Shown: positions 1 through 27,323 of the stretch, piece by piece
Position numbering within the stretch: the stretch's first letter is position 1
Layout of the letters: every line of letters starts with the position of its first letter
Made by a program: the position numbers and the translations under genes
DNA from: an uncultured Gammaproteobacteria bacterium
Lineage (GTDB): Bacteria > Pseudomonadota > Gammaproteobacteria > DRLM01
Assembly: GCA_963729605.1 (NCBI GenBank)
Contig: CAVSNY010000004.1
Span: 1 to 64,000, forward strand
Direction of reading: 5' to 3'
Length of the DNA: 64,000 bases
Notes under the pieces: model-generated
The model's database searches: none
What the model was told of the DNA's origin: nothing
The model's input: only the letters and a program-made list of their open reading frames with translations

Positions 1-2107
<2,107 letters not shown>

Positions 2108-2767: not shown

Positions 2768-2837
2768 TATCTTTCCAGTGTCAAGTTTATCCGTAAACGA
2801 AAAACTGAAAATGCCCGTCAAATTCCGAAGCCCGATC

Positions 2838-3566: not shown

Positions 3567-3592
3567 CCGGCGTGTGCCGGCGTCCGGGCCAG

Positions 3593-3960: not shown

Positions 3961-4104
3961 CACGGTACAACAAAGTGCTGGTCCTGTACATCACAACGTG
4001 CAGTTCGAGCGCGATCGAGCACGGTTCGAGTGCGACTGCACGGTCGAGAGTACGAACGGGTGCGAGACGCGTGGATGCGCGATGCGGCCACGTGAGGTGC
4101 GGCG

Positions 4105-5060: not shown

Positions 5061-5076
5061 GGATGATGAATGGGCA

Positions 5077-6264
<1,188 letters not shown>

Positions 6265-6291
6265 CTAATATCGCGAAGTCCACGCACTCCC

Positions 6292-8509: not shown

Positions 8510-8511
8510 GC

Positions 8512-9505: not shown

Positions 9506-10676
9506 TCGATCTCGATGATGCCCCAGTCCTTCCGGTCGTCGTCGGCGGCGCCGGGCCGGCCGGCGGCCATCACCGAGCGCCGGCTCGGGCTGCTGCGGCA
9601 GGCGCGGCAGCGCGTAGCGGTGCACTTCGCGCGCGAGGTCGTCGTCGGTCGGCGCGGTCGGCGCGGCAGTGCAGGCGGACCCAGACGCGCAGCAGCGGGT
9701 CGGTGTAGCTGTAGCGCTTCTGCCGCGCGGTCACGAGGTCGACGTCCTCGAGCCACGACAGGTAGTCCTTGGTCGAGCCCGGCGTGCGCTGCAGGCGCTG
9801 CGAGATCTCGGTCAGCGTCAGCCCTTCTTCTTCGCGCGAGGATGTCGAGAATCGCCTTGAGCGCGCCGTAGCCGCGCGCGCGGTGCAGCCGCAGCTCGTA
9901 GGAGAAGCGGCACTGCCGCGACGAGGCGCGCCGTCGGCGACCAGCAGCGCGGCGAGCGCGCTGACGGCGTCGCTCGCCGCCCGGGCCGCCGCGCTCGCGC
10001 ATCGCGTCAGCTCGTCGGCGATCGCGCGGACGTACGCCGGCCGGCCGTCGGCGAGCGCCTGGACGGTCGCGCGCGGTGTACTCGGCCTCGTGCGCGTCGC
10101 CCGACGACAGATGGCCGGCGGCGAGGCCGAGCATGTCGAGCGTGTCCTCGGCCGTCAAGCGCCGGCATGTGAATGACTTCGAAGCGCGCCGAGCGGTCGC
10201 GCAGCAGCCGCAGCGTGCGCGCCGTGTAGCGGCTGGTCAGGACGAACCGGTTGCCGCTGGCCGCCAGGCCGTCGACGAGGTCGTGCAGCACCCGGCGCAG
10301 GCCCGGAAAGCTTTCGAAGGTGCGGAGCTCGAGGAACTCGTCGAGCAGGAACGTCGCCGGCTCGCTGCCGCCGGCGCGCGCGCGGTCGAAGAACGCCAGC
10401 GTCGCGTCGAAGGCCGCGCGCGCGCCGGCGGCGGCGGCTCGCCGGCGGCGAACGGCGACGTGCTGCGTGACCGCGCGCAGGAACCGCTCGGGCGTGGTCG
10501 CCGTGCGCTCGACGTCGACGTACTGCGCCGTCGTGCGGCCGATGCGATCGCGCAGCTGCTGCAGCAGCGTGGTCCGGCCGCTGCCGCATCCGCCGAGCAG
10601 GACCGGAATGCGCGAAGGCGAAGCGTCGAGCGCCGCGAGCGACGCGGCGCGTGAGAGTGGAGCGAGGCGTCAGCAT
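9502..10676 (-). CDS. Archaeal-type AAA/P-loop ATPase with C-terminal winged helix, frameshifted
   Basis: Walker A-like VLLGGCGSGRTTLL, Walker B FLLDEF, HTH LTLTEISQRLQRTPGSTKDYLSWLEDVDLV..YTDPLLRVW. Confidence 0.7.
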
Positions 10677-10839
10677 TGCGTCGTGTCCGAAAGAGTAGAC
10701 CTTAAGAAAGCAGCGCGAACGTTGTCAATCGAAAATGAAAACATTTTTCACTTGACTCGACGCGCGCGTCGCGTCATTGCGATCGCGCGCCGCGATCGTC
10801 GCGGCGCGCGCGCCGTGTCGCGCGCGCGTTTGAGAGTAG

Positions 10840-12175
<1,336 letters not shown>

Positions 12176-12280
12176 GGCAGTCGGGACTGACGGCGGCGCA
12201 GGCTACGCCGGATCGCCTCGCAATGCGTGAGCCCGCGAGCAGTCGGCTTCGAGAAACTGACGCGCGGCCGGCTTCTGCGA

Positions 12281-13069
12281 TCAGAAGATCCGCGCGTCCT
12301 GAAGCGGCCACCACCGCACCTTGACCTTGCCGACGATGTACTTCTTCGGCACCTGGCCCCAGTGGCGGCTGTCGGAGCTGTTGTTGCGGTGGTCGCCCAT
12401 CACGAAGTAGTAGCCCTGCTGGACGACGGTCGGGCCCCAGTCGTCGTGGCTGCGGAACTCGTCGGGCACGTAGTCGTCGTGCAGCGGCACGTCGTTGACG
12501 TAGACGCGGCCGTCGACGATGCGCACCGAATCGCCTTCCTTGGCGATCACCCGCTTGACGAACATCTTCTCGGGGTTGAGCGGGTAATACAGCATCACGA
12601 TGTCGCCCGGCCGCGGCTCGCCGAGCTCGTAGACCAGCTTGTTGACGATCAGCCGATCGTGATCCTCGAGCGTCGGCGCCATGCTCAGGCCGTCGACGCG
12701 CGCGACCTGAAAGCCGAACGTGACGATCAGCGTGGCGTAGACGGCGGCGGAGAACAGCGTCTGCACGCCGGCCACGATCTCGCCGCCGATCCGCCGCCAC
12801 GGTGACGAGCGCGGCGCGCGTGTGACGACGGGCGTATCGGCGGCGGGTCCGGCGTCAAGGGGAGCCGCCTCCGGAGCAATGAGCGAATCCGAAGGTTCCG
12901 TGCTGGCGAGCGCCGCGACGGGCAGGCCCGTGTCGGCATCCGCCGCCGGCGTCAGCGGCTCGAAAATCTCGTTGAACGTCGGCGCGCGTTCGCCAGCCGC
13001 GGTCGCGGCAGGCTCGGCGGTCGGGTCTTCTGGGAAGCGCGCCGTATCATCCATGAAAATCTGAGGCAT
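12281..13069 (-). CDS. lepB: Signal peptidase I with long Pro/Ala-rich N-terminus
   Basis: GLSMAPTL (Ser), FVKRVIA (Lys), GDHRNNSSDSRHWG. Confidence 0.95.
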   Translation of the reverse strand: MPQIFMDDTARFPEDPTAEPAATAAGERAPTFNEIFEPLTPAADADTGLPVAALASTEPSDSLIAPEAAPLDAGPAADTPVVTRAPRSSPWRRIGGEIVAGVQTLFSAAVYATLIVTFGFQVARVDGLSMAPTLEDHDRLIVNKLVYELGEPRPGDIVMLYYPLNPEKMFVKRVIAKEGDSVRIVDGRVYVNDVPLHDDYVPDEFRSHDDWGPTVVQQGYYFVMGDHRNNSSDSRHWGQVPKKYIVGKVKVRWWPLQDARIF

Positions 13070-13158
13070 TCAGAATAGCACTACTGTGGCATTGTCCGTT
13101 GCGGCCCGACGAGGTAGCCGGACTGGAGTTCGCTGATCCCTGATAATCATTCCCCCGG

Positions 13159-15106
13159 ATGCACAGACTCTCGCGCGTGGGGTGGCATCTCCTGCCTCCC
13201 CTCGCTTTCGTCGCGCTCGCGATCGGGTGGACGCTTCCCCTGATCAATCACCTGTCATCCAGCCTTCCCGGCGAGCCCGGCGACAACCTCGATTTCCTGT
13301 GGAATACCTGGTGGATGCGCGTGGCGGTCGCGTCACCGGACGTGAGCTTCTTCCGCACGGACCGCCTGTTCTCGCCCTTCGGTGTTGATCTCGCCCTGCA
13401 CACCCACACCGCGCTGCCGTCATGGATCGCGGCAACGGTCCTGGCGCCGGCGTCCACGATTGCGGCCCAGAATCTCATCGTCCTCGGTTCGATCGCCCTG
13501 AACGGGTGCGCCGCCTACGCGCTCGCCTGGTCGATCACCCGGGACCGGATCGCCTCGACCGTCGCCGGATTGATCTTCGCCGGCTCGCCCTACGTCGAGG
13601 CGCACCTCATGGGTCATGTGAATCTGGTCGGACCCTGGGGCATTCCGCTCTTCGTGCTGTGCCTGCAACGCGCTCTCGACCGACGTTCCCGCGCCGCGGC
13701 GGCCGCGGCGGGCCTCTGCCTCGTCGTCACGGCGTTCGTCGACTACTACTATCTGGTCTACGCCTGCGTGCTCGGCGCCGGACTGATCGTCGCGAGCCTC
13801 CGCGCGCTGACGTGGACAACCGCAGCGCGCCGCGTTGGTCGCGGTGTGCTCTGGACAGCGATGGCCCTCGCGGCGCTCGCCATCGTCCTCGCTGCCGCCA
13901 TCGTGGTGACTGGCGGAGTCGTCACCTCCGTCGCGGGCGTCGCGATCACGGCCACGCAGCCGACCAATCTTCTGAGCGCCGGGTGGATCCTGCTCGTGGG
14001 GCTGGCGCTGCTGCGATGGCGGCCGCGTGTGCGCGTCGCGCGCCCGGTGCGCGGCCTCGTCGCAGAGCGCCTGCGCGTGTTGTGGCCAATGGCCGCGGTG
14101 ACGCTCGTCGGACTGGCGCCGCTGCTGCTGCGCGTCTGGACACTCTGGGAGCGCGGCGACTACGCCGCGCCACAGCCCTCATGGCGGAATGCACCGGCGG
14201 GGGTGGATCTCGCGACGCTCGTCCTGGGCAATCCCTGGCATCCGGAGTCGGGTCCCTGGACGCGCAATCTGTATCGGCAACTCGGCATCAACGCGATCGA
14301 GAGTGTCGGCTGGCTCGGTCTCGCGCCCCTCACTCTCGTGGCCTGGACGGTGCTGCGTGAACGCCGGGATCCGATGGTCGCACGCTGGGTGACCGTGGGC
14401 GCGACGTTCTTTGTTGGGCGCTGGGTCCGTGGCTGCGCATCGGCGGATTCAATACCGGCCTGCTCCTGCCACAGAACGTCTTGGCATGGATCCCCGTCCT
14501 CTCGAACGCGCGCATGCCGGGGCGCGCGATGTCGGTGGTCTTTCTCGCGCTCGCCGTCCTCTCCGCGATCGCCATCGCTGGGTCGCCGCGCTCGCGGCGC
14601 CCGTTTCTTGGTGCGCTGGTTATCGTGCTCATCGTCGCGGACTATTGCCCGTCACCGTTCCCGCTGACCCGTGTCGACGTTCCCGCGCTCTACACCCAGC
14701 TTCGGGATTTGCCGCCAGGCGCTGTCTGCGAGCTCCCCGTTGGACTCCGCGATGGATTCGGCGAGATCGGACGTTTCGACGATCGCGTGGCCGCCTTTCA
14801 GATGACCCATGGCCATCCCATCGTCGGCGGCTTTGTTGCCCGGGTCCCGGATTCGATCAAGCAGGGATATGCGGACCTGCCGGTCGTGCGGTCACTGTTT
14901 CTGCTCTCAGCGGGGAAGCCGATGGATGCGCGCGATGCGGCATTCGAGGCGCCAGATGTGGCCCGGCACCTTCACGCGGTCGGGATTCGCTATCTGGTGT
15001 TCAACCGCGAGCCGCGCTGCCGCCGCTGGTCTCGTTTGTGGAGTCGAGCATCCCACATCGCGTCGTCGTCAGCGAAGGGCCGCGCACGCTGATGGTCGTG
15101 GAGTAG
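13159..15106 (+). CDS. Multi-TM membrane protein, likely GT-C/YfhO-like glycosyltransferase; 2 frameshifts
   Basis: GDNLDFLWNTWW, many TMs, NARMPGRA, C-terminal QMTHGHPIVGGFVAR. Confidence 0.6.
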
Positions 15107-15125
15107 TGGAGTAGTGGAGTAGTAG
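15098..15125. repeat. Short tandem repeat (GTGGAGTA)x3
   Basis: gtggagtagtggagtagtggagtagtag overlapping the stop codon. Confidence 0.8.
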
Positions 15126-15154
15126 CGTCCGGCTTTAGCCGATGTTCAACCACG

Positions 15155-15949
15155 TTATGACGTCAGGTGAAGCCGGACGCAACGTACTGCCCGAACGTGG
15201 CAATGACCGGCGCGTGATCGCTGGTGCCGATCTCCTTCTGCACCGGGCACGACACGGCCCGCGCCGCGAGGTCCGCGCTCGGCAAGACGTAGTCGAGGCG
15301 CCAGCCGATGTTGCGCTCGCGCATGTTGCGCCACGGCGCCCACCACGTGAACAGGCCGTCGTTGTCCGGATCGAGCGCGCGGCCGACGTCGACGAGGCCC
15401 CGCGCAGATGATGCGCGCGAGCAGCGCGCGCTCCTCCGGCAGCTGGCCGATCGCGCGCGGCTTGCGCTCTTTCGGGTGGACGTCGCGCTCGGTCCGCGCG
15501 ACGTTCAGATCGCCGCAGAGCACGAGCGGCCGGCCGTCGCGCGCGGAACGCGCTCGGCGTAGGCGTCGAGCGCCTCGAGGAACCGCATCTTGGCCGGGAA
15601 GTCCTTGCCGCCGTTCGGCACGTAGATCGAGGCGATCGTGACGCCGTCGACGTCGGCGGTGACGATGCGGTGTTCGTGATCGAAGGCGGGATGGGTGAAC
15701 GCCGGGCGCTCGGGGCAGACGTGCTTGCTGACGTGCAGGGCGACGCCGGAGTAGCCCTTGCCGCCGTGCCAGTAGCACCAGTAGCCCTCCATCTCGAAGA
15801 GGGCCGTCGGGAATCTGATCGGGAGTGGCCTTGATTTCCTGCAGGCAGACGACGTCCGGGCGATCGCGCGCGAGCCATTCCTGGAGCTGCGCCTGACGCG
15901 GGCCCGGATGCCGTTGACGTTCCAGGTGGCGATCGTGAATTGAGGTCAT
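15155..15949 (-). CDS. xth: Exodeoxyribonuclease III, frameshifted
   Basis: ATWNVNGIRAR, DVVCLQEIK, GYSGVA, YVPNGG, GDLNVA, GWRLDY, SDHAPV. Confidence 0.92.
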   Translation of the reverse strand: MTSIHDRHLERQRHPGPRQAQLQEWLARDRPDVVCLQEIKATPDQIPDGPLRDGGLLVLLARRQGLLRRRPARQQARLPRAPGVHPSRLRSRTPHRHRRRRRRHDRLDLRAERRQGLPGQDAVPRGARRLRRARSARDGRPLVLCGDLNVARTERDVHPKERKPRAIGQLPEERALLARIICAGPRRRRPRARSGQRRPVHVVGAVAQHARAQHRLAPRLRLAERGPRGAGRVVPGAEGDRHQRSRAGHCHVRAVRCVRLHLTS

Positions 15950-16026
15950 CTGGTCAATCGGTCATTGAGTCATTCTGGTCGATTGGCATGCATGACCAGA
16001 TGACGCAGATCGACCAGATGACCCAA
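15943..16026. repeat. Inverted array of degenerate ~9-bp units (GGTCATCTG / CAGATGACC)
   Basis: ggtcatctggtcaatcggtcattgagtcattctggtc facing gaccagatgacgcagatcgaccagatgacc. Confidence 0.6.
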
Positions 16027-16038
16027 ATCGCAGATGCG

Positions 16039-16414
16039 TTAGAACTTGGCGTGCGCGGCCTGACGTTCGGCGGCCGGGACCGCCATGATGTCGGGGTGCG
16101 CGGCGACGTGCGCCTTGACGATCTCTTCGGCCTTGGCCATCGCGTCGGCGTCGCCGAGGCGGTAGATGGCGTTGGCTTCGATCAGCATCTTCTGGTGCGA
16201 CGGTGTCGCGTCGATGCTCTCGTAGATCGCCGCCACCGGGCAGGCCGGCACGCAGGCGCCGCAGTCGATGCACTCTTCCGGATGGATGTAGAGCATCGTC
16301 GCCGTCGGCGAACTCGGCTTCGTCCTTGCGCGGGTGAATGCAGTCGACCGGGCAGACGTCCACGCAGGCCGTATCCTTGGTCTCGATACAGGGGTCAGTG
16401 ATGATGAAGGGCAT
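16039..16414 (-). CDS. Dicluster ferredoxin with helical C-terminal extension, 1 frameshift
   Basis: [18 protein letters not shown] and [14 protein letters not shown]. Confidence 0.92.
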
Positions 16415-16513
16415 GCTCGCGAGTCTCCGTTTGTTGGTTCGTGCAGTCCGGCTTCATCCGGACCGGAAACGGTCGGCTTATCGAGCCAAAATCGAAGAAT
16501 TATACCTTGCGCG

Positions 16514-16990
16514 TCAATCCAGCGCCAAAAACATCATCGGGCTCGGCGTCACGGCATAGCCCATGGACTCGTAGAGCGGCTGGCCGAACCGGCTGGCGTT
16601 CAGCGCCAGCGACTGGATGCCCTGCTCCGCGGCACCAGGCGTGGATGGCGTGCCATCACGCAGTCGGCGCCAGCCCGCGCTGCCGATGCGCCGGCTCGGT
16701 GTAGACGTTGTAGACGAACGCGAGCCGGTCGCCCAGGATAGCGCGGACCGGGCGGCCAGGGAATGATCGTCATGCCGCCGCCGGCGACGATGCCGCCGTC
16801 GGCCGTCTTCGACGAGCCACGCGCGGTACGTGCCTGCGGGCATCATCTGCGCGCAGCCAGGGGCGAAAGCGCGCGTCGAGCACCGCGGCGGTCGAACGTG
16901 ACGCCCATGTCCTCGAACATCGCGACGCGGTGGTGCACGAGCGACGTCCTCGTCGTCGAGCGTGGCGGGTCTGATGCGGTAGTCGGACAT
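16514..16990 (-). CDS. GNAT acetyltransferase, frameshifted
   Basis: [35 protein letters not shown]. Confidence 0.85.
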
Positions 16991-17015
16991 GGGAACCGCG
17001 GATTATACTCGGCGG

Positions 17016-17328
17016 ATGTCGAATCCCGCCGAAGCACGCCGAACGCGCCACGACGAGGCCCGGAGCCGCCGGATCTCAGCGAGAAGGGCGGCATCAAGAA
17101 CGGCCAGCCGCAGCGATCCGACGACCGCCTGTTCATGCAGTTGCTGGCGTTCGGCGGCTGCCGCGACACCGGCCGCTGGCCGCGGCGCTCGGCGGCGGGC
17201 GTCAGCGGCGTCCTGTACGAGGACGTCAACGATCCCGCGCGGGGTGGCGCTGCTGACGTTGAGCCGGATCCCGGCGTCTTCGTCGATCGCGTGCGGCCGC
17301 TGCTCAACTCGGGAAGCCGTTTGCCGGG
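17016..17328 (+). CDS. Probable chlorite dismutase/HemQ-family protein N-terminus, cut by junction
   Basis: DLSEKGG..DRLFMQLLAFGGC..VLYEDVNDPRGVALL; family from recall, catalytic half absent. Confidence 0.5.
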
Positions 17329-17329
17329 C

Positions 17330-17536
17330 TATGCGCGCTCGCGGTCGCGACCTGCTCGGTCCGGTGATGTTCCTGCCGCTGGCGATCCCGCTCGTGATCG
17401 CCGCAGTGTCGCTGTCGCTCGTGGCGTTCGACGCGAGCAGTCGATCGCCGCGCAGCTGCTGCTGTTCCTGGTCGTCTACGACGCGACGTTCCTGGTCGCC
17501 GGCATCGCGGCGTTCCCCGAGCTCGCGGTCGAGTAG
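17330..17536 (+). CDS. ccmB: Heme exporter CcmB C-terminus (5'-truncated)
   Basis: RGRDLLGPVMFLPLAIPLVIAAV..LLFLVVYD..FPELAVE; ccmC nearby. Confidence 0.75.
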   Translation, partial: YARSRSRPARSGDVPAAGDPARDRRSVAVARGVRREQSIAAQLLLFLVVYDATFLVAGIAAFPELAVE

Positions 17537-17537
17537 C

Positions 17538-17905
17538 TCAGCCCTTCGCGCCGCCCACGCGGCCCAGGTGCGTGTCCTGGAACGCAGTCGGCGAGCTTGA
17601 GGCCGTAGCCGAGCGCGCGGTCGACGCCGATGTGGAACGCCCACGCGAGCGCGACGAGCTGCAGCGCCGCGGTCGTCGATGACGACGGCGATCGCGCCCA
17701 GCGCGAACGGCGCGGCGGGACGTTGACGGCGTTGTAGGTGGCCGCGCCGATTCGCGGGCCCGCGAGGTAGCCGATCGCCGACAGGTCGAAGGCCAGGAAG
17801 ACCGCCAGCAGCCACCACCAGTCCGCATCGAGCTGCGTGAACAGCACGCCGAGAGCGCGGCGAGGCGAGGGCTTCGAGCCGCTGGAGCAGGATCGGATTT
17901 GTCAT
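17538..17905 (-). CDS. DUF4260-like membrane protein, frameshifted
   Basis: LQRLE, DLSAIGYLAGPRIGAATYN, HIGVDRALGYGLK, FQDTHLG. Confidence 0.8.
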
Positions 17906-18046
17906 GCCAGCGACGTTATCCCACGGATCGGCGTCGGTTCCGCCACCCACGCGGATGCGCCGATCATCGAAACAGGGTGCCGCCTAAGGCCAACTGCGCC
18001 TCGCGGCGACGCGGACAGCCTCCGATCGCCGGTAGGATTGCGCATC

Positions 18047-18845
18047 GTGCAGCCGGATCTTCGCTCCCCGAACCTCGCGCGCGCGCGTGTCGCCCCGCCT
18101 CGCGGCGGTGCTCGCGCTCGTGCTCGTGCCCCTCACGCGTCGTGCTCGCGTTCTTCTGGGCGCCGACCGCGACGATCGGCCTCGTCGGCGGCGAGGTCCA
18201 GTACGACTTCCCGCAGAAGATCTTCTACCTGCACGTGCCGATCGCCCTCGCCGCGTACCTGTGCTTCGCGGCCGGCGCCTGGAACGGCCTGCTGTACCTG
18301 CTCAAGGAGCGCGAGGACTACGACATGCGCTCCTACGTCGGCGTGCACTCCGGGATGGTGTTCGGCACGCTCGTGCTGCTCACCGGCTCGATCTGGGCGA
18401 AGGCCGCCTGGGGCGTGTGGTGGCAGTGGGGCGACCGCCAGCTGCTCGTGTTCCTGACCCTGTACCTGTTCTACGGCGCCTACTTCGTGCTGCGCTTCTC
18501 GCTCGACGCCGGCCGCGCACCGCGACCGGGCGAGCGCCGTGTACTCGCGTGCTCGGCGTCGCGCTCGTGCCGCTGTCGTTCCTGGCGATCCGCATCGCCG
18601 ACACGCTCATCCACCCGATCGTGCATCACCAGCCGACGGGCGACCGACTGACCGGCCCGATGTGGGCGACGTTCGGCATCGGCGTCGTGGCGTTCGCGGC
18701 GCTCGCCGATGTGGATGCTGCAGCTCGAGACCGCCGGCAAGCTGCGCGCGTCGCGCGGCTGGTGCGCCGACGAGGAGCGCCCGGCCGGCACGGCGCATGC
18801 GACGAGCGCAGCGCCCGCGAGCGAGGAGGTCGCGCGCATGCATGA
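18047..18845 (+). CDS. ccmC: Heme exporter/cytochrome c biogenesis CcmC, frameshifted
   Basis: KIFYLHVP, TGSIWAKAAWGVWWQWGDRQL (WWD domain), TLIHP. Confidence 0.88.
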
Positions 18846-18970
18846 CGGCTGGGAATACGTCGTCGCCGCATACGGCGTCGACGGCCGTCGACGCTCGGCG
18901 CGTGGTTCTGGATGATCGTCCTGCGCAAGCTCGCACGCCAGCGGCGCAGCGGGAGCAGCGCGATGGCTGA
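18838..18970 (+). CDS. Small single-TM protein, CcmD-like
   Basis: MHDGWEYVVAAYGV with GGAGG RBS, directly after ccmC. Confidence 0.5.
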
Positions 18971-20219
18971 CGCACGGCACGCGGCATCGTCTGCATCGGC
19001 GCGCGCCACCAGACCGCGAGCCTCGCCGTCGCGCGAGCGCTTCGCGCTCGAGCGGCCGCGCGGCACGGAGCTGTGCGCGCGAGCTGGCCGAGCACCCCGA
19101 CGTGCTCGAGGTCGCCGCGCTCGCGACCTGCAACCGCAGCGAGCTGTACCTCGTCGCCACCGACGTCGACGCCGTGCATCCGGCGTCGCCGTCGCGGCGT
19201 TCGCGCGCCTGGCCGACGCCGATCCCGAGGAGCTGTCGACGATGCTCGCCGTGCGCGAGGAGCGAGGCGGCGGTCGAGCACCTGTTCCGCGTCGCCGGCG
19301 GCATCGAGAGCGTCGTCACCGGCGAGGCGCAGATCCAGGGCCAGCTGCGCGCCGCGCACGAGCACGCGCGCGAGGCCGGCACCTGCGGCCCGCTGCTCGA
19401 CCGGCTGTTCCGACGCGCGGTGGAGATCGGCAAGCGCGCGCGCACCGAGACGCGCATCGGCGCCGGCCGCGCATCGATCGGATCGGTCGCCGCCGAGCTC
19501 GTCGCCAGCCGCCGCGGTGGCTCGCTCGAGGACGCGCGCGTGCTCGTCGTCGGCGCCGGCAAGATGGGCGACGCTCGCTGCACGCAGCCTGCGCGCAGCG
19601 CGGCGCGCGCCGCATCGACGTCGCCAACCGCAGCGTCGAGCGCGCGCAGCCGGTCGCCGCCAGCTCCGGCGCGAGCGGCGTCGGCGTCAGCGTTCGCCGA
19701 GCTCGACGCCGAGCTCGCGACGCTGCGACGCGGTCGTCAGCTCCACCAACGCCCCGCACGTGGTGATCGACGCGCGAGCGCGTCGAGGCGGCGATGCGCG
19801 TGCGCGACGGTCGCCCGCTCGTGCTCGTCGACCTGGCCGTGCCGCGCGACATCGACCCGGCGTGCGGCGAGCTGCCCGGCGTGCACGTGTTCGACCTCGA
19901 CGACCTGGAGCGCGTCGTCGCCGAGACGCTCGACGTGCGCACCGAGGAGGTCGACGCGGTCGAGCAGCTCGCGCGCGACGGCGCGCGACGAGTTCGCGAC
20001 CTGGCTGCGCGCCGAAGGCCGCGACGCCGCGCGATCCGCGCGATGCGCGAGCGCGCCGAGCGAGCTGCGCCAGGCGGAGCTCGAGCGGTTCCTCGCGCGC
20101 ATGGCGCACCTGGCCGCCGAGGATCGCCAGCGCATCGACCAGCTCACGCGCGGCATCGTCAACCGCCTGCTGCACGACCCGACGATGCGGCTGCGCGAGG
20201 CCGCGGAGCAGGTAGCTGA
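18963..20219 (+). CDS. hemA: Glutamyl-tRNA reductase, frameshifted
   Basis: ATCNRSELY, HLFRVAGGIESVVTGEAQIQGQ, GAGKMG, VDLAVPRDIDP, LLHDP. Confidence 0.93.
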
Positions 20220-21205
20220 TGACCCGGCCGCGCCCGGCGCTGCGGCTCGGCACGCGCCGCAGCCCGCTCGCGCTGCACCAGGCGGCGCTCGTGCGCGACG
20301 CGATCGCGCGCGCGATCCCGACCTCGAGTCGAGCTGGTCGAGATCGTCAGCGACGGCGACGTCGACCCGCGCGACCTGCGCGACATCGGCGAGCGCGGCA
20401 TCTTCGCGCACGCGCTCGAGCGGCAGCTCGCGCGACGGCGCGATCGACGCCGCCGTGCACTCGAGCAAGGACCTCGCGCTCGACGACACCGGCGGGCCTC
20501 GTGCTCGCCGCATGGCTCCCGCGCGAGGATCCGCGCGACGCGCTCGTCGGCAGCCGGCTGCGACGCTGCTCGACCTGCCGCACGGCGCGACGATCGCGAC
20601 CGGCAGCGCGCGGCGCATGGCGGCGCTGCGCACGCTGCGCGCCGACCTGCAGCCACGAGCCGATCCGCGGCAACGTCGCGACGCGCATCCAGCGCGCCGC
20701 GCGAGCGCGGCGACGCGGCCTGCGTGCTCGCGATGGCCGGCCTGCGTCGGCTCGGCCTCGTCGACGCAGCGCGCACGACATCCGACCGATCGCCGTCGAC
20801 GCAGCTCGTGCCCGAGGCCGGGCAGGGCGCGGTCGTCGTGCAGGCGCACGCCCAGGTCTGCGACGCGCACCGGCCTCGACTGGAGCGCGCTCGACCACGT
20901 CGCGCGACGCGCCGAGCCGTGCAGCTCGAGCGCGCGCTCGCGCGCCGCTCGGCGGCGGCTGCGACCGACCGGTCGGCGTGCACGTCGAGCTCGACGCAGG
21001 GCCGCGTCCACGTCTTCCGCGCCGTCGCCCGACGACGCCGGGCACGGCGCGTCACCTCGACGTGGTCGGCCTGGAGCTCGGGACGCTCGTGTCGGTGCAG
21101 CGCCGCGCGCGACGTCGACGACGCGGCGCACTGGACCGCCGCGCAAGCTCGCGCCGATGCTCGCCGACGCTCGTCGGCGCACAGCTCGTGGAGGTCGCAC
21201 GATGA
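20219..21205 (+). CDS. hemC: Porphobilinogen deaminase, frameshifted
   Basis: LRLGTRRSPLALHQ, AVHSSKDL, REDPRDAL, TGSARR, IRGNVATRI, LGGGCDRPVG. Confidence 0.9.
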   Translation: MTRPRPALRLGTRRSPLALHQAALVRDAIARAIPTSSRAGRDRQRRRRRPARPARHRRARHLRARARAAARATARSTPPCTRARTSRSTTPAGLVLAAWLPREDPRDALVGSRLRRCSTCRTARRSRPAARGAWRRCARCAPTCSHEPIRGNVATRIQRAARARRRGLRARDGRPASARPRRRSAHDIRPIAVDAARARGRAGRGRRAGARPGLRRAPASTGARSTTSRDAPSRAARARARAPLGGGCDRPVGVHVELDAGPRPRLPRRRPTTPGTARHLDVVGLELGTLVSVQRRARRRRRGALDRRASSRRCSPTLVGAQLVEVAR

Positions 21206-22700
21206 CGCGCCGCGCGCACGCCGGCACCGTCTACCTGGTCGGCGCAGGCCCCGGCGACGACGGCCTCGTCACCCGCCGCGCGCTCGAGCTCGTGCGCAGT
21301 CGCCGACGTGCTGCTCGTCGACCGCCTCGTCCCGCCGCGAGCTGCGCGAGCACGCGCGCGCCGATGCGCGAGCTCGTCGACGTCGGCAAGACCGCCGGCG
21401 ACCACGCGATGCCGCAGGACGAGATCAACGAGCTGCTCGTCGACCGAGGCGCTCGCCGGACGCAGCGTCGTGCGCGTCAAGGGCGGCGACCCGTACCTGT
21501 TCGGGCGCGGCGGCGAGGAAGCGATGCGCTGTCGCGCCGCCGGCGTGCCGTTCGAGGTCGTGCCCGGCGTCACGAGCGCGTTCGCGGCCTGCGCCGCCGC
21601 CGGCATCCCGGTCACGCACCGCGACCTGTCACGCCACGTCACCGTCGTCACCGCCTCGGCCGGCCGCGACGGCCAGGGCGACCCCGACTACGAGTGGCTC
21701 GCGCGCAGCGACGGCACGCTCGTGCTGCTCATGGGCCTGCGCCGCGTCGGGCACGTCGCCGAGCGCTCATCGCCGGCGGCATGCCGCCGCCCGGCCCGTC
21801 GCGGTGATCTCGCGCGGCACGACGGCGAGCCAGCGCGTCGTGACCGGCACGCTCGGCACGATCGCGCGGCCGTCGAGGAGGCGCAGCTCGCGTCGCCGGC
21901 GATCATCGTCGTCGGCGACGTCGTCGAGCTGCGCGAGCACCTCGACTGGTTCGAGCGGCGCCCGCTGTTCGGCACGCGCGTCGCGGTCACGCGCGCGCGC
22001 GCGCAGGCCAGCGAGCTGGTGCAGCGGCTCACCGAGCTGGGCGCGCAGGTCGTCGAGGTGCCCGGCGATCCGCACCGAGCGGCTCGACCCCGCGCCGCTC
22101 GACGCGGTCGATCGACGCGCTGGCCGAGCTCGAGACGGTCGTGTTCACGAGCCGCAACGGCGTCGACGCGTGCTTCGACGCGGCTCGCCGAGCGCGGCCT
22201 CGACGCGCGCGCGCTCGGCAGCGTCAAGCGCGTCGCCGTGGTCGGCGACGCGGCACCGCCGAGGCGTGCCGCGCCGCACGGCATCGGCGCGGACGTGATC
22301 CCGCCGGTCGGCGCACGCACCGCGGTCGGCTGCTCGAGAGCTGCTCGCAGCTCGCGCTGTTCGGCACGCGCTGCGCGATCATTCGCGCCGAGCGCGGCGA
22401 CGACCGCCTGCCCGACGGGCTCGCGGGCATCGACGTCGAGGTGCTGCTCGCGCCGGCCTACCGCACCGTGCGTGCGAGGACGCCGCGACGCGCTTCGCGA
22501 GCGACTGACGCTGCTCGGCATGCGACGTCGTCACCTTCGCGTCCGCGTCGACGGTCGCGCAACGCCGATCGGCGATCGCCAACTCGCCGGCGCGCACGCT
22601 GCCGCCCTGCGTGACGATCGGCCCGACCACCGCGGCCGCGGCTCGACGCGGCGGCCTGACACGTGCTGCAGGAGGCCGACAGCCTGACCGGGCATCGCAC
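21202..22700 (+). CDS. cobA: Fused uroporphyrinogen-III C-methyltransferase/synthase, frameshifted
   Basis: VYLVGAGPGD, VRVKGGDPYLFGRGGEE, VPGVTS, GIPVTHR; WFERRPLFGTRVAVTRARAQAS then HemD FTSRNGV, IGPTT. Confidence 0.88.
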
Positions 22701-22779
22701 CGGGCCGCTCGACGTCGCCAACCACGGCAGCCTGAGCGCCCGCGAGCAGCGTCGCCCGCCGCCGCCGCCACGGCACTGC

Positions 22780-23656
22780 GCGTCTCGCGCAGGAACGCGG
22801 CGACGACGAGGCCGCCGCCGAGCGCGACGCCGACCCAGCTGTTGACGGTGAAGAACGCCTGGTCGATGCGCGACAGGTCGTCGGCCGAGACGATCGAGTT
22901 CTCCCATGCGAGCAGCGCCGCGGCGATCGCGATGCCGATCCACGCGGCGAGGCCGAGCTCGAGCTGGACCGCGGCGCGCGCGAACGCGGCGATCGTGCAC
23001 GCGTGCGCGACGCGCACGATCGTGAGCGCGCGGGCGATGCCGAAGCGCGCCGGCAGCGACTGGATGCCGTTGCGCGCGGTCGAACTCCACGTCGGCGGTC
23101 GCGTAGATCACGTCGAAGCCGCCGATCCAGCGCGGCGATGCCGAGCCACAGCAGGTACGGCGCGAGCTCGTCGCCCGGCGCGCCGGTCGCGAGCCACGCG
23201 CCGAGCGGCGCGAGGCCGATCGACAGGCCGAGCACGAGGTGGCACAGCCACGTGAAGCGCTTGGTGTACGGATACAGCACGAACAGCGCGACGGGGATCG
23301 GCCACAGCACGCGCGTGATCGGGTCGAGCTGGAACGTCGCGGCGACGAGCAGCGCGAGCGACGCCGCGCACAGCAGCCACACCTGCGCGGGCGCGACCTT
23401 GCCCGGTCGGCAGCTCGCGCGATCGCGGTGCGCGGGTTGCGCGCGTCGATCTCGCGCGTCGATCACGCGGTTGAGGCCCATCGCGAGCGTGCGCGCGCCG
23501 ACCATCGCGAGCGTGATCCACACGCACGAGCGACGACGGTGACGTCGCACGTCGGCCGCGTCGCGCGCCGAGCACCATGCCGGCGTAGGCGAACGGCAGG
23601 GCGAAGATCGTGTGCTCGAACTTGACGAGGCTGGCGAGTGTGCGGAGCGTGCGCAT
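22780..23656 (-). CDS. UbiA-family prenyltransferase (MqnP-like), frameshifted
   Basis: VKFEHTIFALPFAY, ARTLAMGLNRVID, YPYTKRFTWLCH, IDQAFFTVN. Confidence 0.88.
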
Positions 23657-23667
23657 CGCGCGCCAGC

Positions 23668-24360
23668 CTACCGCGCGCCTACCCGTCGCTCAGCTCGGTC
23701 GCGAGTCGACGCCGTGGAAGCGCGTGCGCGGCGGCGTCGGCGCGCGAGCGCCTCGGCCTCCGCGCATCGCGAGCTCGACGATGCTCGGGCGGCTCGTCGA
23801 TCGACGCGCTCGCGGCGCGAGCCAGCTGACACGTGCAGCGCGCGCGCCGAGCGCCGCGCCGAGCAGCGCCGCGGCGACGCCGCGCGAGCACGCATGCCCG
23901 GCGCGCCCGACGAGCGCCGTCGCCGACGAACGCCGAGCGTCGGCGATGTCACGCGGCGACGCGGCAGCCGAGCACGCCCGGGAGCGTCAGCGCGAGCGAG
24001 CACGCGCGGGCACGCGGCAGCGTCCACGCGAGCGCGCCGCAGTCCCACGCGAGCACGCGCGCCGGGGTGTCGCAGCCGCGCGAGCTGACATGCCGAGCGC
24101 CAGCAGCAGCGTCGCGCCGACCACGAGCAGCGCGAGCGCGCCGCAGCACCGACGCGTCGCAGCGCGCGCGCGCGCAGGCGCGGTGCCGAAGCTCGCCGCC
24201 TGCGAGCAGCGACCGCGCCAGCGCCGAGCAGCGCGACGCCGCCGAGCGACGCAGCCCGAGCGAACCACGCCCACCACGGCGTCGGCTGCCAGCCGGCGCA
24301 GCGCGCCGGCGTCCTCGCCGATCTCGTCGTCCAGCCGAGCAGCGTCGTCCAGTCGCTCAC
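23668..24360 (-). CDS. Hypothetical membrane protein, heavily frameshifted
   Basis: Hydrophobic segments in several frames between otsA and the UbiA-like gene. Confidence 0.35.
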   Translation of the reverse strand: MSDWTTLLGWTTRSARTPARCAGWQPTPWWAWFARAASLGGVALLGAGAVAARRRRASAPRLRARALRRVGAAARSRCSWSARRCCWRSACQLARLRHPGARARVGLRRARVDAAACPRVLARADAPGRARLPRRRVTSPTLGVRRRRRSSGAPGMRARAASPRRCSARRSARALHVSAGSRRERVDRRAARASSSSRCAEAEALARRRRRARASTASTRDRAERRVGAR

Positions 24361-25372
24361 CGCGCCACCAGCGGCTCGCCGGCGCGCAGCGCGGCGATGT
24401 CGTCGAGCTGCGCCTGCATCCAGTCGCGCACGTCGTGGTCGATCACCTGCCGGCGCATCGCCTCGGCGCGCTCGCGGCGCTCGGGCGCGGGCATGCGCAG
24501 CGCCTCGAGCAGCGCGTCGGCCTGCTGGGCGACGTCGAACGGGTTGACCGTCACCACGTACGGGCCGAGCTCGTTGTAGGAGCCGGCCTGGTCGCTCAGC
24601 ACGACCACGCCGTCGCGCTCGTTGACGAGCGGGCCTTCCTTGCTGACGAGGTTCATGCCGTCGGCGACCGGGTTGACGAAGAGCACGTCGTACTCGCGGT
24701 AGGCGGCGACGCCGCCTGGAAGTTCGAGTCGAGGTTGACGTGCAGCGGCGTCCAGGTCGGCGTCGCGAAGCGGTGGTTGACGGCCGTCGCGGCGGCCTTC
24801 ACCTGCGCGAGGTAGTCGATGTAGGCGGTGATGTCCTGGCGCGACGGGTCGAGCTGGCAGAACATCGACACCTCGCCGTGCAGCTCGGGGTGCTCCTCCA
24901 GCAGCAGCGCGTAGGCGCGGAAGCCGCGCACGATGTTCTTGGACGGGTCGGTGCGGTCGACGCGCACGATCAGCTTGCCCTCGCTGCCGTCGTCGGGCGT
25001 CGCGGGCGCATCGCGCTGATGCGCGTGCGCAGGCGCTCGACCGTGGCGCTCGCGGCGTGCTCCTCGAACTCGTCGACGGCGACGCTGATCGGGTAGGTGC
25101 GCACGCGCGTGATCGCGCCCATGTAGCGGACCGTGCCGGTGCGGAACTCGACGCTCGCGCCGAGGAAGTGGTGCACGGTGCGCAGGAAGTTCTCGGCGTC
25201 GCGGTGCGTCTGGAAGCCGACCACGTCGCAGGCGCAGCAGGCTCTCGCACACGTCGCGCGCCCAGCGCGCGCGGCAGCGCGCGCCACGCCCGGGTCGGGC
25301 CACGGGATGTGGCAGGAAGAACTGCACGAACGGCGCGGCGCGGGCCTGGCGGCGAGCGAGCCGCTCGCGCAT
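24357..25372 (-). CDS. otsA: Trehalose-6-phosphate synthase (GT20), 5'-truncated, frameshifted
   Basis: HIPWP, VVGFQT, YPISV, RVDRTDPSKNIVRGF, DGMNLVSKEGP, VNPFDV. Confidence 0.92.
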
Positions 25373-26040
25373 ATCGCCTCGAAATCACTGGCCGAGAGAT
25401 TTGGCGATAAAGGAATGATCGAGACTGAAACGTCCGCACGTTCTGTCCCTATCACGGGACTTGGCGTTCCAAATATTCCATCGTTTAGCCAGCCAATAGT
25501 TGGCTTTGGTCGGACATCCACCGCATGCCCGTCTGATTCATCGGCTGTTTGAACAATCGAGGCCACTAGACTATCAACCTGAGCGAGTGGAATATCATGC
25601 AGTTCAACGGTTCGTGACCAACGCGGGCCGAAATGGTAGACAGCGGCGTACATAATTTTGGCCTTGATACTGTCCACGTCTCCCGCCAACATAGCAGTGT
25701 AGAAGGCGAGATGAACGTCTTGTCACGGGCGCGACTTCTGGTCGCAGGCCACGTCATGTATGACTGAGGCGGGTCTGTACTTTCCCTCGAACGGACCGCC
25801 GATCACAGACCAGGCTATTTGTGGAATAGATGCGCCATCCACAATGGAACCCTTTGGCGCATTCCAAGTTACGTTGTTGGGTGCTAAGTAGCTAAATGGC
25901 TCGATCAACTCCATTCTCCGGCCGTCATCCAGCCATTTTGCGCTAACCGATCCAACAAACAAACCGAAGGTCTGTGCATTGCAGACCAGGGCATTCGTGC
26001 TGAGCAGGACTACCGCTAGTGCGCTAATGATTGTTCGCAT
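25373..26040 (-). pseudogene. Secreted DUF1353-like protein, integron cassette ORF, in-frame TGA at 25723-25725; 3' end cut by junction
   Basis: Signal peptide, DGASIP, ASVIHD; same frame continues QDVHLAFYTAMLAGDV..MYAAVYHFGPRW after the TGA. Confidence 0.8.
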
Positions 26041-26054
26041 GATGCACTCCTGCG

Positions 26055-26126
26055 GTCTAACGTTGAAGCTGTGCGGTGCAAATGAAGCGTAGCGTAGTTT
26101 GCATCCGAACGAGCGCCATGTTATGT
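26055..26126 (-). mobile_element. Integron attC recombination site (72 bp)
   Basis: Minus strand ACATAAC..GCTcGTTCGGaTGCAAA-loop-TTTGCACCGCACAGC..GTTAGAC: R boxes, L boxes, two extrahelical bases; 7 bp after the upstream stop. Confidence 0.92.
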
Positions 26127-26133
26127 GCCGATT

Positions 26134-27153
26134 TCATTCCCCACGTAATACCTGGCAAATAAAATCAATAGCGCTTTCCTTATAAATGCTTGGCGTTGCA
26201 TTAGATAATTTACCTTCTTTCACAAAAGCGTCTTTTTGTTTTTTACTGGAGAATACATAAGAAGAATAGTCAGTATTGTTCTTGATATCGGTTTCTTTAA
26301 TTATTCTCCAAACATCGGTTTGCTTTGCATTTGGCATTTTTTTGCGTACTGCCGCATCTAGTTCTCGCGCTGTTAGAGGATATTCTTTGATTAAATCTTC
26401 CTTTACCTTCTTAACAACCTCTACTTTATCGATTGGCACAACATCGCCAATTAATTTCAAGGTCGCAGCACCAGATTTCTCTGTGAACATACCCTCTTTG
26501 ACAAATTTGAGTTTTTTGGCCAATTCTTCATCAAGCACAAGTATTCTTGAACTATCTTTCTCAATTAAAGATTTTTCGGTATCTAAGATTGCTGCATTAC
26601 TAGGACCCGCCTTGCCGATCTTTGACATAAGATCGAGCCATTGATCATTGTTTTGTTTTATCCGTTTATTAATTATGGCCTCTAGCTCAGCGAATTGTAT
26701 TTTTTGCGTTCTTCCACCATATCTGTAATAAATCTCTCCATTTTTTATTATCTGGTCTTTACCTTCATCTTTTTTTGCGATTATCGGTTTCGTAATTGCT
26801 TCGTATATCTTGAATATACCGAATTGCATACCTGAAACTTCAATTAGTGATAACTCCCACCTCATGTCTGAGGAGAATATCTGCAATAAATAGCCAGTTA
26901 TCTTCTCTGCATCTAGTTTTTCGAATTGATCGATGGACTTCTCCGTCATTCCAATGAGCGTTCTAGGTGAGTCTTTAACCCCATAGATTAGATAGCCCCC
27001 ACGGTTGTTGGCAAACGCAGCGAAATCCCTAAAGTAGTCAGCCAGAGCAGCCAGACTAAACTGCTCCTTAAATTCAAGCTCTTGTCCTTCGCGATGAAAT
27101 AACGTTCCGCCTTTCAAACGAAGTAGCTCTTCTACTTTCTCCTGTTCAATCAT
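26134..27153 (-). CDS. Schlafen/AlbA_2 domain protein, integron cassette
   Basis: REGQELEFKE, FAAFANNRGGYLIYGVKD, YYRYGGRT; markedly AT-rich relative to host. Confidence 0.88.
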   Translation of the reverse strand: MIEQEKVEELLRLKGGTLFHREGQELEFKEQFSLAALADYFRDFAAFANNRGGYLIYGVKDSPRTLIGMTEKSIDQFEKLDAEKITGYLLQIFSSDMRWELSLIEVSGMQFGIFKIYEAITKPIIAKKDEGKDQIIKNGEIYYRYGGRTQKIQFAELEAIINKRIKQNNDQWLDLMSKIGKAGPSNAAILDTEKSLIEKDSSRILVLDEELAKKLKFVKEGMFTEKSGAATLKLIGDVVPIDKVEVVKKVKEDLIKEYPLTARELDAAVRKKMPNAKQTDVWRIIKETDIKNNTDYSSYVFSSKKQKDAFVKEGKLSNATPSIYKESAIDFICQVLRGE

Positions 27154-27185
27154 CCATGCGCTCGATTTTTAAAGAAGCCGAAAGG

Positions 27186-27244
27186 TACATAATCTTAAGT
27201 AGACATCCTAATTGACGCCTTATAAGGCGTCATCAGGTGTTCTA
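27186..27244 (-). mobile_element. Degenerate att site at head of the cassette array, with 20-bp perfect palindrome
   Basis: Minus strand aTTATGT complements the cassette's own ACATAA; stem TAGAACACCT/AGGATGTCTA around TGACGCCTTATAAGGCGTCA (27213-27232). Confidence 0.55.
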
Positions 27245-27323
27245 AATTTTTCCCATGGTAAAAGTATCCTGTACTATCAGCAAGAAAATAAATTTAGGGT
27301 GTGTAGGATGACTTCGCTCGGCA

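Follow-up and report, generated by a model that had tools for sequence, protein, structure and literature searches.

Several kinds of described systems lie close to the locus reported here. Integron gene cassettes occur in clusters with two or more attC sites and no integrase (attC clusters that lack an integron integrase, CALINs, in the definition of Cury et al. 2016, PMC4889954), and cassettes have been described as stores of anti-phage genes (Kieffer et al., as presented in the review PMC13434031). For the prokaryotic Schlafens, the account in PMC13056530 gives Ex4ExK as the catalytic motif of SLFN11 and Ex4(E/D)xK as conserved in 5,930 prokaryotic members, reports phage defence for two of the seven systems tested, and counts 1.9 defence genes within 10 kb of a Schlafen gene versus 0.13–0.19 for two ribosomal genes. 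One prokaryotic member, RorSlfn5, is triggered by a phage tail-assembly chaperone (PMC13056530; review PMC13434031). We have analysed a stretch of 64,000 nucleotides (the window, positions 1–64000 of the 351,665-base contig C4, GenBank CAVSNY010000004.1) from the genome of an uncultured gammaproteobacterium (G000), in which an integron gene cassette encoding a 339-aa Schlafen-type protein (cassette 1) lies behind lhr. A preliminary description of this DNA had read the region as an integrase-less cassette array at the 3′ end of lhr, led by a Schlafen/AlbA nuclease cassette.

We find that the spacer between lhr and cassette 1 is an attI-bearing platform stub with seven copies in the genome, which is the main addition to that first reading. 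The explanation that best accommodates the whole of the data, and that we consider likely, is an integron remnant holding a Schlafen cassette whose product probably acts as a stand-alone anti-phage effector. The structural part of this explanation, comprising the attC site, the attI stub, the cassette boundaries and the integrase-less remnant, is held with high confidence.

An attC site delimits cassette 1

The lhr gene, the stub and two cassettes all lie on the minus strand, and are described along that strand. Cassette 1 extends from 27192 to 26061 and consists of a single gene plus its own attC, a 72-nt site (26126–26055) with R″ = ACATAAC and R′ = GTTAGAC. The top strand of the site reads GCT-C-GT.CGG-A-TGCAAA...TTTGCA-CCG.AC-AGC, with one C and one A unpaired, and a single hairpin is obtained once the AAC/GTT pairing is enforced.

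Folding energy alone was uninformative for this site, and covariance models were therefore built from the arrays of relatives. An integron integrase scoring above the TIGR02249 cut-off is present in 13 of the 41 genomes searched (40 relatives and the window genome), and the carriers of an intact intI include the same-genus genomes G001 and G002. Training sites were taken from the cassette side of intI (in G004, G027, G029 and others) with a simple scanner for hairpins bounded by ..AAC and GTT... When all 11 training sites were aligned with MAFFT their 3′ halves were misaligned, and the first model (R1) instead uses seven shorter sites, from intI-adjacent arrays in three other genomes. The second model (R2) was built from 31 re-aligned matches, from relatives only, and its rows include duplicates where loci overlap, a single row from the reverse strand and a single near-identical site. 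Both are our own models and are distinct from that of IntegronFinder.

On the minus strand, R1 matches exactly positions 26055–26126, its sole match in the window at E ≤ 1 (23.0 bits; E = 0.014 for a search space of 216,382 bases). R2 matches the same interval over its full model length (41.1 bits, E = 1.4e-7), with one further, partial match in the window at E = 4.6; in the genome-wide search the site ranks third (E = 7.6e-6) among the 150 candidates scored out of 6060 from a first look. The unpaired C and A sit at model positions that they share with those of the training sites, and a near-identical 72-nt attC is found in G029 (L030:4489–4560), between other attC sites and beside an intact intI. 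The canonical attC proposed in the preliminary description is thus real, with both models placing it at the same bases.

The hairpin scanner, which was used solely to pick training sites and for three of the homologous loci discussed below (L035, L038 and L039), recovered the window site as well as canonical sites in G004, G027 and G029, and failed on some sites found by covariance model (e.g. L061:703–769). In relaxed form it gave 5 positives out of 29 downstream of homologues versus 5 out of 105 in random windows. Rfam returned no family at E ≤ 1 between 25300 and 27400; attC is apparently not among the Rfam families.

The start of cassette 1, TTATGT (27192–27187), is complementary at all six positions to its own R″, ACATAA (26126–26121). 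Cassette 1 therefore combines the two marks of an integron gene cassette, an attC recognized by covariance model and a start (TTRRRY) complementary to its own R″.

The spacer behind lhr is one of seven attI stubs

The spacer from lhr to the cassette open reading frame (ORF) measures 170 nt, and the stub within it (27303–27197, 107 nt) begins about 20 nt past the lhr stop codon. Blastn and a pattern search together find seven copies in the genome, 78–95% identical to the window copy (Table 1), and an eighth, partial piece at C7:382394–382444. Among 11 other genomes of the order, the stub was found in one, the same-genus G003.

In five of the six other copies, the first 10–23 codons of intI (MANTADHPPKLLDQVRAKIR...) lie upstream in divergent orientation. 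Similarity in five copies extends about 70 nt upstream, where the opposite strand encodes MANTADHPPKLLDQVRAKIRLKH..., and the copy at C7:412163–412067 abuts a degraded intI (C7:412215–412467) that covers TIGR02249 positions 1–45 and 94–135 and contains a stop codon. Since the start of intI can be read upstream of five of the stub copies, the repeat corresponds to the stretch that separates the intI start from the first cassette. All copies share a conserved end, ...GGATGTCTACTT, followed by four bases, TT and then complete divergence. A similar sequence is seen in the attI region of G001:C50, an intact integron from the same genus (...ATTAGGGTGTCGAATAAACGTTGGAC).

With the crossover position fixed beforehand by the stub, the chance of an exact match between a cassette start and its own R″ is 1 in 4096 per case. 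Five cases match exactly, of which four come from this genome (including the window) and one from the congener G003, and a sixth matches at five of six positions (Table 1). The rule by which the preliminary description had fixed the boundaries of cassette 1 therefore repeats behind other stubs. In two soil-metagenome runs from one study, contigs carry the stub (27197–27292) followed by other sequence starting with TTCGGC or TTATGC. A search with the stub pattern gave a single contig from a JGI metagenome (L079), on which the stub is followed by TTAGAT and no intact intI is present.

One shared crossover register, together with cassette starts that pair with their own attC sites, identifies the stub as a used attI. 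Judged from these alignments, the lhr–cassette spacer is such a site: it corresponds to a region flanked by the 5′ end of intI on one side and by the first cassette on the other, and different cassettes follow one crossover point. The same data bear on a second possibility, that the cassettes landed at a secondary GTT-type site after lhr and never at an attI. Integron integrases can insert cassettes outside att sites (as reported in bioRxiv 10.1101/2022.09.11.507474), and Cury et al. (PMC4889954) list such events as one origin of CALINs. However, the 107 nt preceding cassette 1 are homologous to the intI-start/first-cassette region in six other loci, with the crossover in the same register, so that a secondary-site origin is already contradicted and extremely improbable.

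The window carries a perfect 20-nt palindrome, TGACGCCTTATAAGGCGTCA (27232–27213), past the lhr stop codon and ahead of the crossover. The element is conserved in all stubs, without mismatch in two copies and with one to five mismatches in the others, and it may serve to bind a protein or to block transcription.

Some of the stub copies are located inside arrays, behind an attC site (C7:1212270–1212207, C5:233199–233133) or behind a hairpin element. The latter, with arms GGGACAGATTTATTTAT and ATAAATAAATCTGTCCC, lies directly upstream of several stubs (C7:1212190–1212060, C5:232730–232670) and also occurs in L079; it may be akin to a miniature inverted-repeat transposable element or be a decayed attC. 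Among the products of cassettes that follow other stubs are AbiJ_NTD5 with a TIR-like tail, AbiJ_NTD4/PDC-S32, NYN-LOTUS, a Gp49/HI1420-type toxin–antitoxin pair and an IS5-family transposase. At the C7_406 stub (C7:406086–404393), cassette one encodes AbiJ_NTD5 with the TIR-like tail and cassette two AbiJ_NTD4/PDC-S32; the attC of the AbiJ_NTD5 cassette is very short, about 33 nt (C7:405344–405312).

Other attC sites in the genome form small groups near other stubs or lie at C7:1032363–1033012, C7:586669–589286 and C7:383102–383193. The last of these, related in sequence to the window site, is an attC in decay: its loop contains a GCTGC repeat that has expanded, its cores (GCCTAAA and CTTTAGAG) are degenerate, and it lies on the opposite strand, near the partial stub piece mentioned above.

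At least seven stub copies, no working integrase and a different first cassette behind each copy form the basis for a more speculative reading, in which the platform stub (first intI codons, intergenic region and attI) would be a repeated, possibly mobilizable module. We consider this unlikely on present data. If true, it would describe a 'distributed integron' with many attI entries across the chromosome, served by a visiting integrase acting in trans, in contrast to the classical single platform with a single array.

Absence of an integrase and classification of the locus

No intact intI was found in the genome, which is 94.5% complete. The best TIGR02249 match scores 76 bits against a cut-off of 265, and the top matches are XerC/D-like proteins (76 and 67 bits) together with the degraded fragment on C7 described above. 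No ORF of the genome reaches the integron-integrase cut-off, and the preliminary description was correct in placing an integrase-less locus directly behind lhr.

In the wording of IntegronFinder, the locus is a single attC without an integrase, to which an attI stub is added. It is not a complete integron, as no intI over the TIGR02249 cut-off lies beside the array, nor is it a CALIN, for which two or more attC sites with no intI close by are needed: the 64 kb contain one attC, and cassette 2 is cut before its own. The term 'cassette array' used in the preliminary description is apt in that cassettes sit at an attI with no integrase, but the one attC falls below the two of a CALIN.

We conclude that the locus is a chromosomal integron remnant left after loss of the integrase. 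IntI-type site-specific recombination inserted the cassettes at the attI crossover. With no intI found in the genome, they can no longer move on their own and would need an integrase supplied in trans.

The cassette 1 protein is a prokaryotic Schlafen

PF04326 (SLFN_AlbA_2) matches residues 22–152 of the cassette 1 protein with 67.1 bits (cut-off 25.3, E = 2.5e-18). The Ex4ExK motif is E22-G-Q-E-L-E27-F-K29, and D61 is also present. HMMER aligns residues 17–76 to rat Slfn13 (5YD0, E = 7e-4) and human SLFN11 (7ZEL), with E22-x4-E27-x-K29 falling on ESQLVEFK of SLFN11 and G58-V-K-D61 on GVDD, the second aspartate of which we take to be the third catalytic residue. Across 81 relatives, the most distant of them at 28% identity, E22, E27 and K29 each show conservation of 90% or more. 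The assignment of EGQELEFK as a Schlafen active site in the preliminary description is borne out by the SLFN11 alignment and by the motif as given in PMC13056530.

An AlphaFold2 model based on 41 close homologues had a predicted local distance difference test score (pLDDT) of 67, and one based on 81 more diverse sequences a mean pLDDT of 85.9, with residues 1–175 above 95 and residues 255–339 forming a compact domain at 85–97. The top Foldseek matches are 3LMM, SLFN12, SLFN11, SLFN13, SLFN5, SLFN14 and SAMD9 (E from 1e-6 to 5e-4; from 1e-6 to 1e-4 for 3LMM and the five SLFN proteins). With VIA-align, the core superimposes on 3LMM with Z = 10.2 and on SLFN11/12/5, SAMD9 and 2KYY with Z = 8.1–8.9. 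With PF04326 over its gathering score, the catalytic motif and the nuclease fold all present, the protein belongs to the Schlafen family.

The C-terminal region of about 170 aa that the preliminary description could not assign, and offered as a possible phage sensor, consists of two parts: residues 153–250, which are shared with relatives of about 440 aa, and residues 255–339. In VIA-align, the second part gives Z = 4.5–6.1, below the tool's reliable level, to Rv1828-C, RacA, TnrA, GlnR, SoxR, MerR and an excisionase. Such weak similarities hint at a small MerR/excisionase-type DNA-binding fold in the predicted structure, and the domain may act as a nucleic-acid binder. The ESM Atlas gave best values of 0.76–0.78 for residues 250–339, below the level of a lead, and a DUF5929 cluster proposed there (0.76) was not confirmed by Pfam.

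Sequence searches match 1747 proteins at E ≤ 0.001 (90% clusters), and the 120 matches listed are 64–87% identical over the full length. Among the 1124 matches in 50% representatives, many are about 440 aa long, with residues 18–250 in common and a different sequence thereafter. The middle region accordingly belongs to a wider family, and only the last 85 residues are special to the 340-aa form.

Homologues in attC arrays and in defence loci

Is cassette carriage, or a neighbourhood of defence genes, common to the family? Thirty homologous loci from species-representative genomes of Pseudomonadota, Bacteroidota, Deinococcota and Desulfobacterota, encoding proteins 57–87% identical to that in the window, were examined. 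R2 run without filters gave 26 matches at E ≤ 1, 25 of which are on the strand of the gene. At E ≤ 0.015 an attC on that strand is present in 10 of the 30 loci (L035, L039, L040, L042, L045, L046, L056, L059, L061 and L063). Some of these sites abut the gene, either after its end (L061:703–769, gene end at 681) or before its start at 4001 (L042:3908–3969, L045:3874–3970), and in L035, L042, L045 and L061 the sequence ACATAAC directly follows the stop codon, as it does in the window. We also note a canonical site at 5028–5096 in L038 and L039 that R2 missed.

PADLOC models were run on all 160 neighbouring ORFs of at least 110 aa (150 at 1e-8 and 10 at 1e-5). Matches near the homologue were obtained in 14 of the 30 loci, a raw count, uncorrected for the background among unrelated genes, and in one of these loci (L044) the match is to a doubtful desaturase model only. 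In L051 (2546–8716) the order is hsdM-X-hsdS-hsdR with gaps of 10 nt, and in L050 (432–6838) it is hsdM-X-hsdR, where X is the Schlafen homologue; gaps in these restriction–modification (R–M) operons are about 10 nt or the genes overlap. Type I subunits lie beside the homologue in L057 and L060 as well. Other neighbours are a PLD-helicase with a DUF1156 methylase (L047), a Gabija/OLD-like ATPase (L046), DarT–DarG (L053 and L064), ThsB-like TIR proteins (L054) and PADLOC candidate systems (L037, L049, L055 and L059).

In total, attC sites, defence neighbours or both are found in 22 of the 30 loci and neither in eight. Homologues do occur in attC arrays and beside defence genes, and the condition under which the preliminary description would have been refuted (homologues never in cassettes or defence islands) does not apply. 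By analogy, the homologues inside type I R–M operons suggest that some family members guard restriction systems.

A candidate anti-phage effector

We propose that the product of cassette 1, with its AlbA_2 nuclease core, conserved middle region and small C-terminal domain, would act as a stand-alone anti-phage effector, latent until infection, and would then cut tRNA and stop translation, as RorSlfn5 does. Its expression, nuclease activity, tRNA target, trigger and defence phenotype are all points that we infer. A defence function for this protein, taken by itself and judged from sequence, is somewhat favoured.

The main alternative is that the protein is a DNA- or RNA-binding regulator or housekeeping-type factor, in which AlbA_2 is joined to a winged-helix-like C-terminal domain, and that it is carried in an ordinary accessory cassette. 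The names given to homologues ('predicted HTH transcriptional regulator', 'Putative DNA-binding domain', 'ATP-binding protein') fit this alternative, as do the best alignments of residues 255–339, with MerR, RacA, TnrA, GlnR and excisionase-type domains, and the very high conservation across phyla (75% mean column identity over 41 sequences). Eight of the 30 loci have neither attC sites nor PADLOC neighbours and, in the account of PMC13056530, 30.4% of prokaryotic Schlafen genes have no defence neighbour. Against it, the catalytic Ex4ExK is conserved at 90% or more among 81 relatives that extend to 28% identity, and homologues lie in type I R–M operons and beside DarTG, ThsB-like, Gabija/OLD-like and PLD-helicase genes. 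Fusions to helix–turn–helix domains are, moreover, a listed architecture of Schlafen defence proteins (8.8% of the total, PMC13056530), and the C-terminal domain has only structural matches that fall short of the tool's reliable level. A regulatory or housekeeping role is doubtful, and we favour the anti-phage effector.

Several observations weigh against the integron remnant with an anti-phage Schlafen cassette. On the protein side, (i) residues 183–250 have low AlphaFold2 confidence; (ii) the C-terminal domain resembles a DNA-binding fold (Z = 4.5–6.1) and not a known sensor; (iii) NCBIfam has no model for the 339-aa protein; (iv) the PADLOC model PDC-S50 matches at 2.1e-9 over the Schlafen core only (profile positions 16–152 of 387), without likeness over its full length; (v) an identity of 57–87% across phyla is unusually conservative for a defence protein and (vi) the 14 loci with PADLOC matches are the raw count noted above. 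On the DNA side, the folding energy of the attC is unremarkable on the bottom strand (−12.3 kcal/mol, z = −0.85, with 43 of 200 shuffles as good) and on the top strand (z = −0.59 versus shuffles); R2 finds no second attC in the 64-kb window, leaving a single visible site; and the base before the crossover TT is A in the window copy of the stub, where G is usual. At least one suspect join on the contig, described below, bears on the adjacency of lhr and the array. Finally, no sigma-70-like site was found on the cassette strand between 25300 and 27400, and one was found on the other strand versus 3.6 expected by chance. Expression would therefore rest on an unrecognized cassette promoter (Pc) or on read-through from lhr, which is possible since the cassettes are co-oriented with it.

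Cassette 2, the high-GC junction and the surroundings of the locus

The features of the locus and the copies of the stub are collected in Table 1. The assembly comprises seven contigs with a total of 3.48 Mb, a GC content of 0.59–0.62 per contig and a contamination of 0.46%, and no runs of N occur within the window. The two cassettes had been described as AT-rich. This holds for cassette 1 (GC 0.35–0.43, with lhr at about 0.65–0.70), but not for cassette 2, at 0.50–0.56 versus 0.61 for the genome.

Table 1. Coordinates of the locus (window positions) and of the other stub copies (contig:positions), with first-cassette starts and their own R″
Feature	Positions	Strand	Basis or remark	Cassette start / R″	Match
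lhr, large helicase-related protein, 1590 aa	27324..32096	-	Pfam DEAD, Helicase_C, WH_Lhr, DEAD_assoc, WH3_Lhr, WH4_Lhr
Integron platform stub with attI (C4, window)	27197..27303	-	One of 7 genome copies (blastn)	TTATGT / ACATAA	6/6
Recombination junction AAGA/TTATGT; cassette 1 start at 27192	27187..27196	-	Register common to all stub copies
Cassette 1 ORF, 339-aa prokaryotic Schlafen (AlbA_2)	26134..27153	-	PF04326 at 2.5e-18
Cassette 1 attC, 72 nt	26055..26126	-	Covariance models R1 and R2
Cassette 2, truncated, begins TTAGAC, DUF1353	25373..26060	-	Pfam PF07087 at 5.5e-22, TGA read through
High-GC segment, unrelated, outside integron	1..25372	.	GC 0.65-0.80; broken reading frames
Stub copy C7_406	C7:406223-406115			CTATGC / GCATAA	5/6
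Stub copy C7_1211	C7:1211953-1211846			TTAGCT / AGCTAA	6/6
Stub copy C7_412	C7:412163-412067			TTAGGC / GCCTAA	6/6
Stub copy C5_230	C5:230120-230018			TTGGGC / GCCCAA	6/6
Stub copy	C5:232613-232515
Stub copy	C2:638-533
Stub in congener G003				TTGGGC / GCCCAA	6/6

The ORF of cassette 2 starts at 26040, 8 nt past AGGAG; its product is a DUF1353 protein whose N-terminus is hydrophobic. The frame is interrupted by a TGA at 25725–25723, and the full DUF1353 profile (positions 1–91) is matched solely when this codon is read through, so that the frame is not intact. With a TGA inside an otherwise full DUF1353, cassette 2 is either a pseudogene or carries a base error. Its ORF runs into the junction without an end of its own, its attC is missing, and no second copy of the cassette was found in the genome.

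What the preliminary description had taken for a contig break is an internal junction, since the window is only the first part of a much longer contig. At about 25373–25385 the sequence changes abruptly to unrelated, frameshifted DNA of high GC content. A Glyco_transf_20 frame at the junction lacks profile positions 1–170, the remainder being spread over three frames (positions 171–267, 275–355 and 366–472), and pieces of hemA, hemC and cobA are fused in one 901-aa frame. Tblastx of the segment against the rest of the genome gave 15 matches with amino-acid identities of 37–77%, which shows that more distant copies of at least some of these functions are present elsewhere in the genome. On these sequence features, the segment is probably an assembly misjoin or foreign DNA, and it is unsafe for users of the assembly to treat the first 25 kb of the contig as belonging to this organism.

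The lhr neighbourhood was compared with that of relatives. In the same-genus G001, where Lhr is 94% identical across its last 360 residues, TGATGCCGGACAAAG... comes next after the lhr stop codon, with merR-like and ihfA genes beyond it, and the array is absent; the first 8 nt past the stop codon are the same in G001 and the window. By blastn, this merR-like/ihfA region is represented in the window genome by one 80-nt piece of 84% identity in the middle of C7, indicating that gene order differs between the two genomes here. No lhr neighbours the integron in the intI-bearing loci fetched from G001, G002, G003 and G004, and inspection by eye, without a scan by the attC models, showed no stub or cassette 3′ of lhr in the stretches viewed from G001, G002, G004, G005, G006 and G008. 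The Lhr open frame itself is 1593 aa long versus 1444 aa in G001, with extra stretches at about 31400–31300 and 29000–28770 that look like in-frame insertions of a short repeat element, one of 12 residues and one of 15 residues present twice.

These comparisons bear on a third possibility, that the adjacency of lhr, stub and cassette is an assembly artefact created through the 107-nt, seven-copy repeat, by which this cassette or the entire array would have been joined to a wrong flank. An obviously unnatural join lies 1.8 kb away on the same contig, the stub is a multi-copy repeat, and lhr of G001 leads into merR-like and ihfA genes without any array. The two soil-metagenome runs mentioned above contain 7–10% of the sampled words, in short pieces, and none of the pieces listed from them crosses the 25373 junction or the lhr/stub junction. 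The C4 copy, however, differs from every other copy up to the crossover (AAGA versus TAAG, and single-base gaps), and the stretch of 20 nt that joins the lhr stop codon to the stub is unique, with the first eight shared with the sequence downstream of G001 lhr as noted above. An assembly in only seven contigs also suggests reads longer than 107 nt, and the integrity of the cassette is in any case independent of its flank. We therefore regard an artefact as very unlikely and retain the order lhr, stub, cassette 1.

Significance and comparison with known systems

Each component of this locus is already known: integrase-less clusters, cassettes as defence stores and bacterial Schlafen defence. 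Within the literature searched here, a Schlafen integron cassette is not reported; the one paper to cover these topics together was a review, in which they are handled in separate sections. The words 'Schlafen' and 'AlbA' are absent from the main text of the preprint of Darracq et al. (bioRxiv 10.1101/2024.07.02.601686), and 'integron' has no occurrence in the supplements of PMC13056530 other than files 11, 25 and 26. In the same supplements the Cellulophaga and Mariniflexile rows are other proteins, and no row for WP_253968666, WP_355662501, Gilvimarinus or salifodinae is present in those other than files 11 and 13–26.

The locus offers a clean case, with its boundaries resolved, in which a Schlafen-type nuclease travels as an integron cassette, and links cassettes as phage-defence stores with bacterial Schlafens as tRNA-cutting immune effectors. 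It belongs to a gene family found both in attC arrays and in R–M operons, in several phyla, and the well-conserved 340-aa form is a good target for testing. In addition, an integrase-less cassette cluster can retain a recognizable attI that current software overlooks, and the presence of many used attI copies in one genome bears on the origin of such clusters.

Compared with CALINs and with single attC sites lacking integron integrases (SALINs) as described in PMC4889954 and bioRxiv 10.1101/2024.07.02.601686, the locus is alike in its attC-bounded cassette, its co-oriented ORFs and the lack of a nearby intI. As in half of the CALIN genomes of Cury et al. (PMC4889954), intI is absent genome-wide. 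It differs from a CALIN in having one attC where two are needed and in keeping the attI side, in a stub that is present seven times in the genome, with some copies inside arrays. IntegronFinder, as described, seeks attI of classes 1–3 only, and the window attI is outside that scope.

The prokaryotic Schlafens RorSlfn5 and EcoSlfn7 (Perez Taboada et al. 2026, PMC13056530) resemble the cassette 1 protein in their PF04326 core, in Ex4ExK and in consisting of a single gene with a fused C-terminal module, and the homologues of the window protein share the defence-island neighbours of that group. The modules themselves differ: RorSlfn5 is described with an Ig-like sensor and EcoSlfn7 with DUF262, whereas the window protein has a 100-aa middle region and an 85-aa, possibly winged-helix domain. 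The window family, known here from sequence and predicted structure, also differs in being spread as an integron cassette. PDC-S50 is alike in its core, while the remainder of the protein is different.

PrrC and RloC are anticodon nucleases encoded inside type I R–M loci. The homologues in L050 and L051, flanked by hsdM/hsdS or hsdR, occupy a similar position, and both groups would be latent tRNA nucleases; the fold and family of PrrC and RloC are unrelated, however, and the window gene has no R–M partner. A further parallel is with the cassette defence stores of Darracq et al. (bioRxiv 10.1101/2024.07.02.601686), as presented there. Like those, the locus holds a small, single-gene defence candidate placed first behind an attI, and other first cassettes in the genome carry AbiJ-N/TIR-like and toxin–antitoxin genes. 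The difference is that the integron in the window is dead, with no IntI to shuffle its cassettes.

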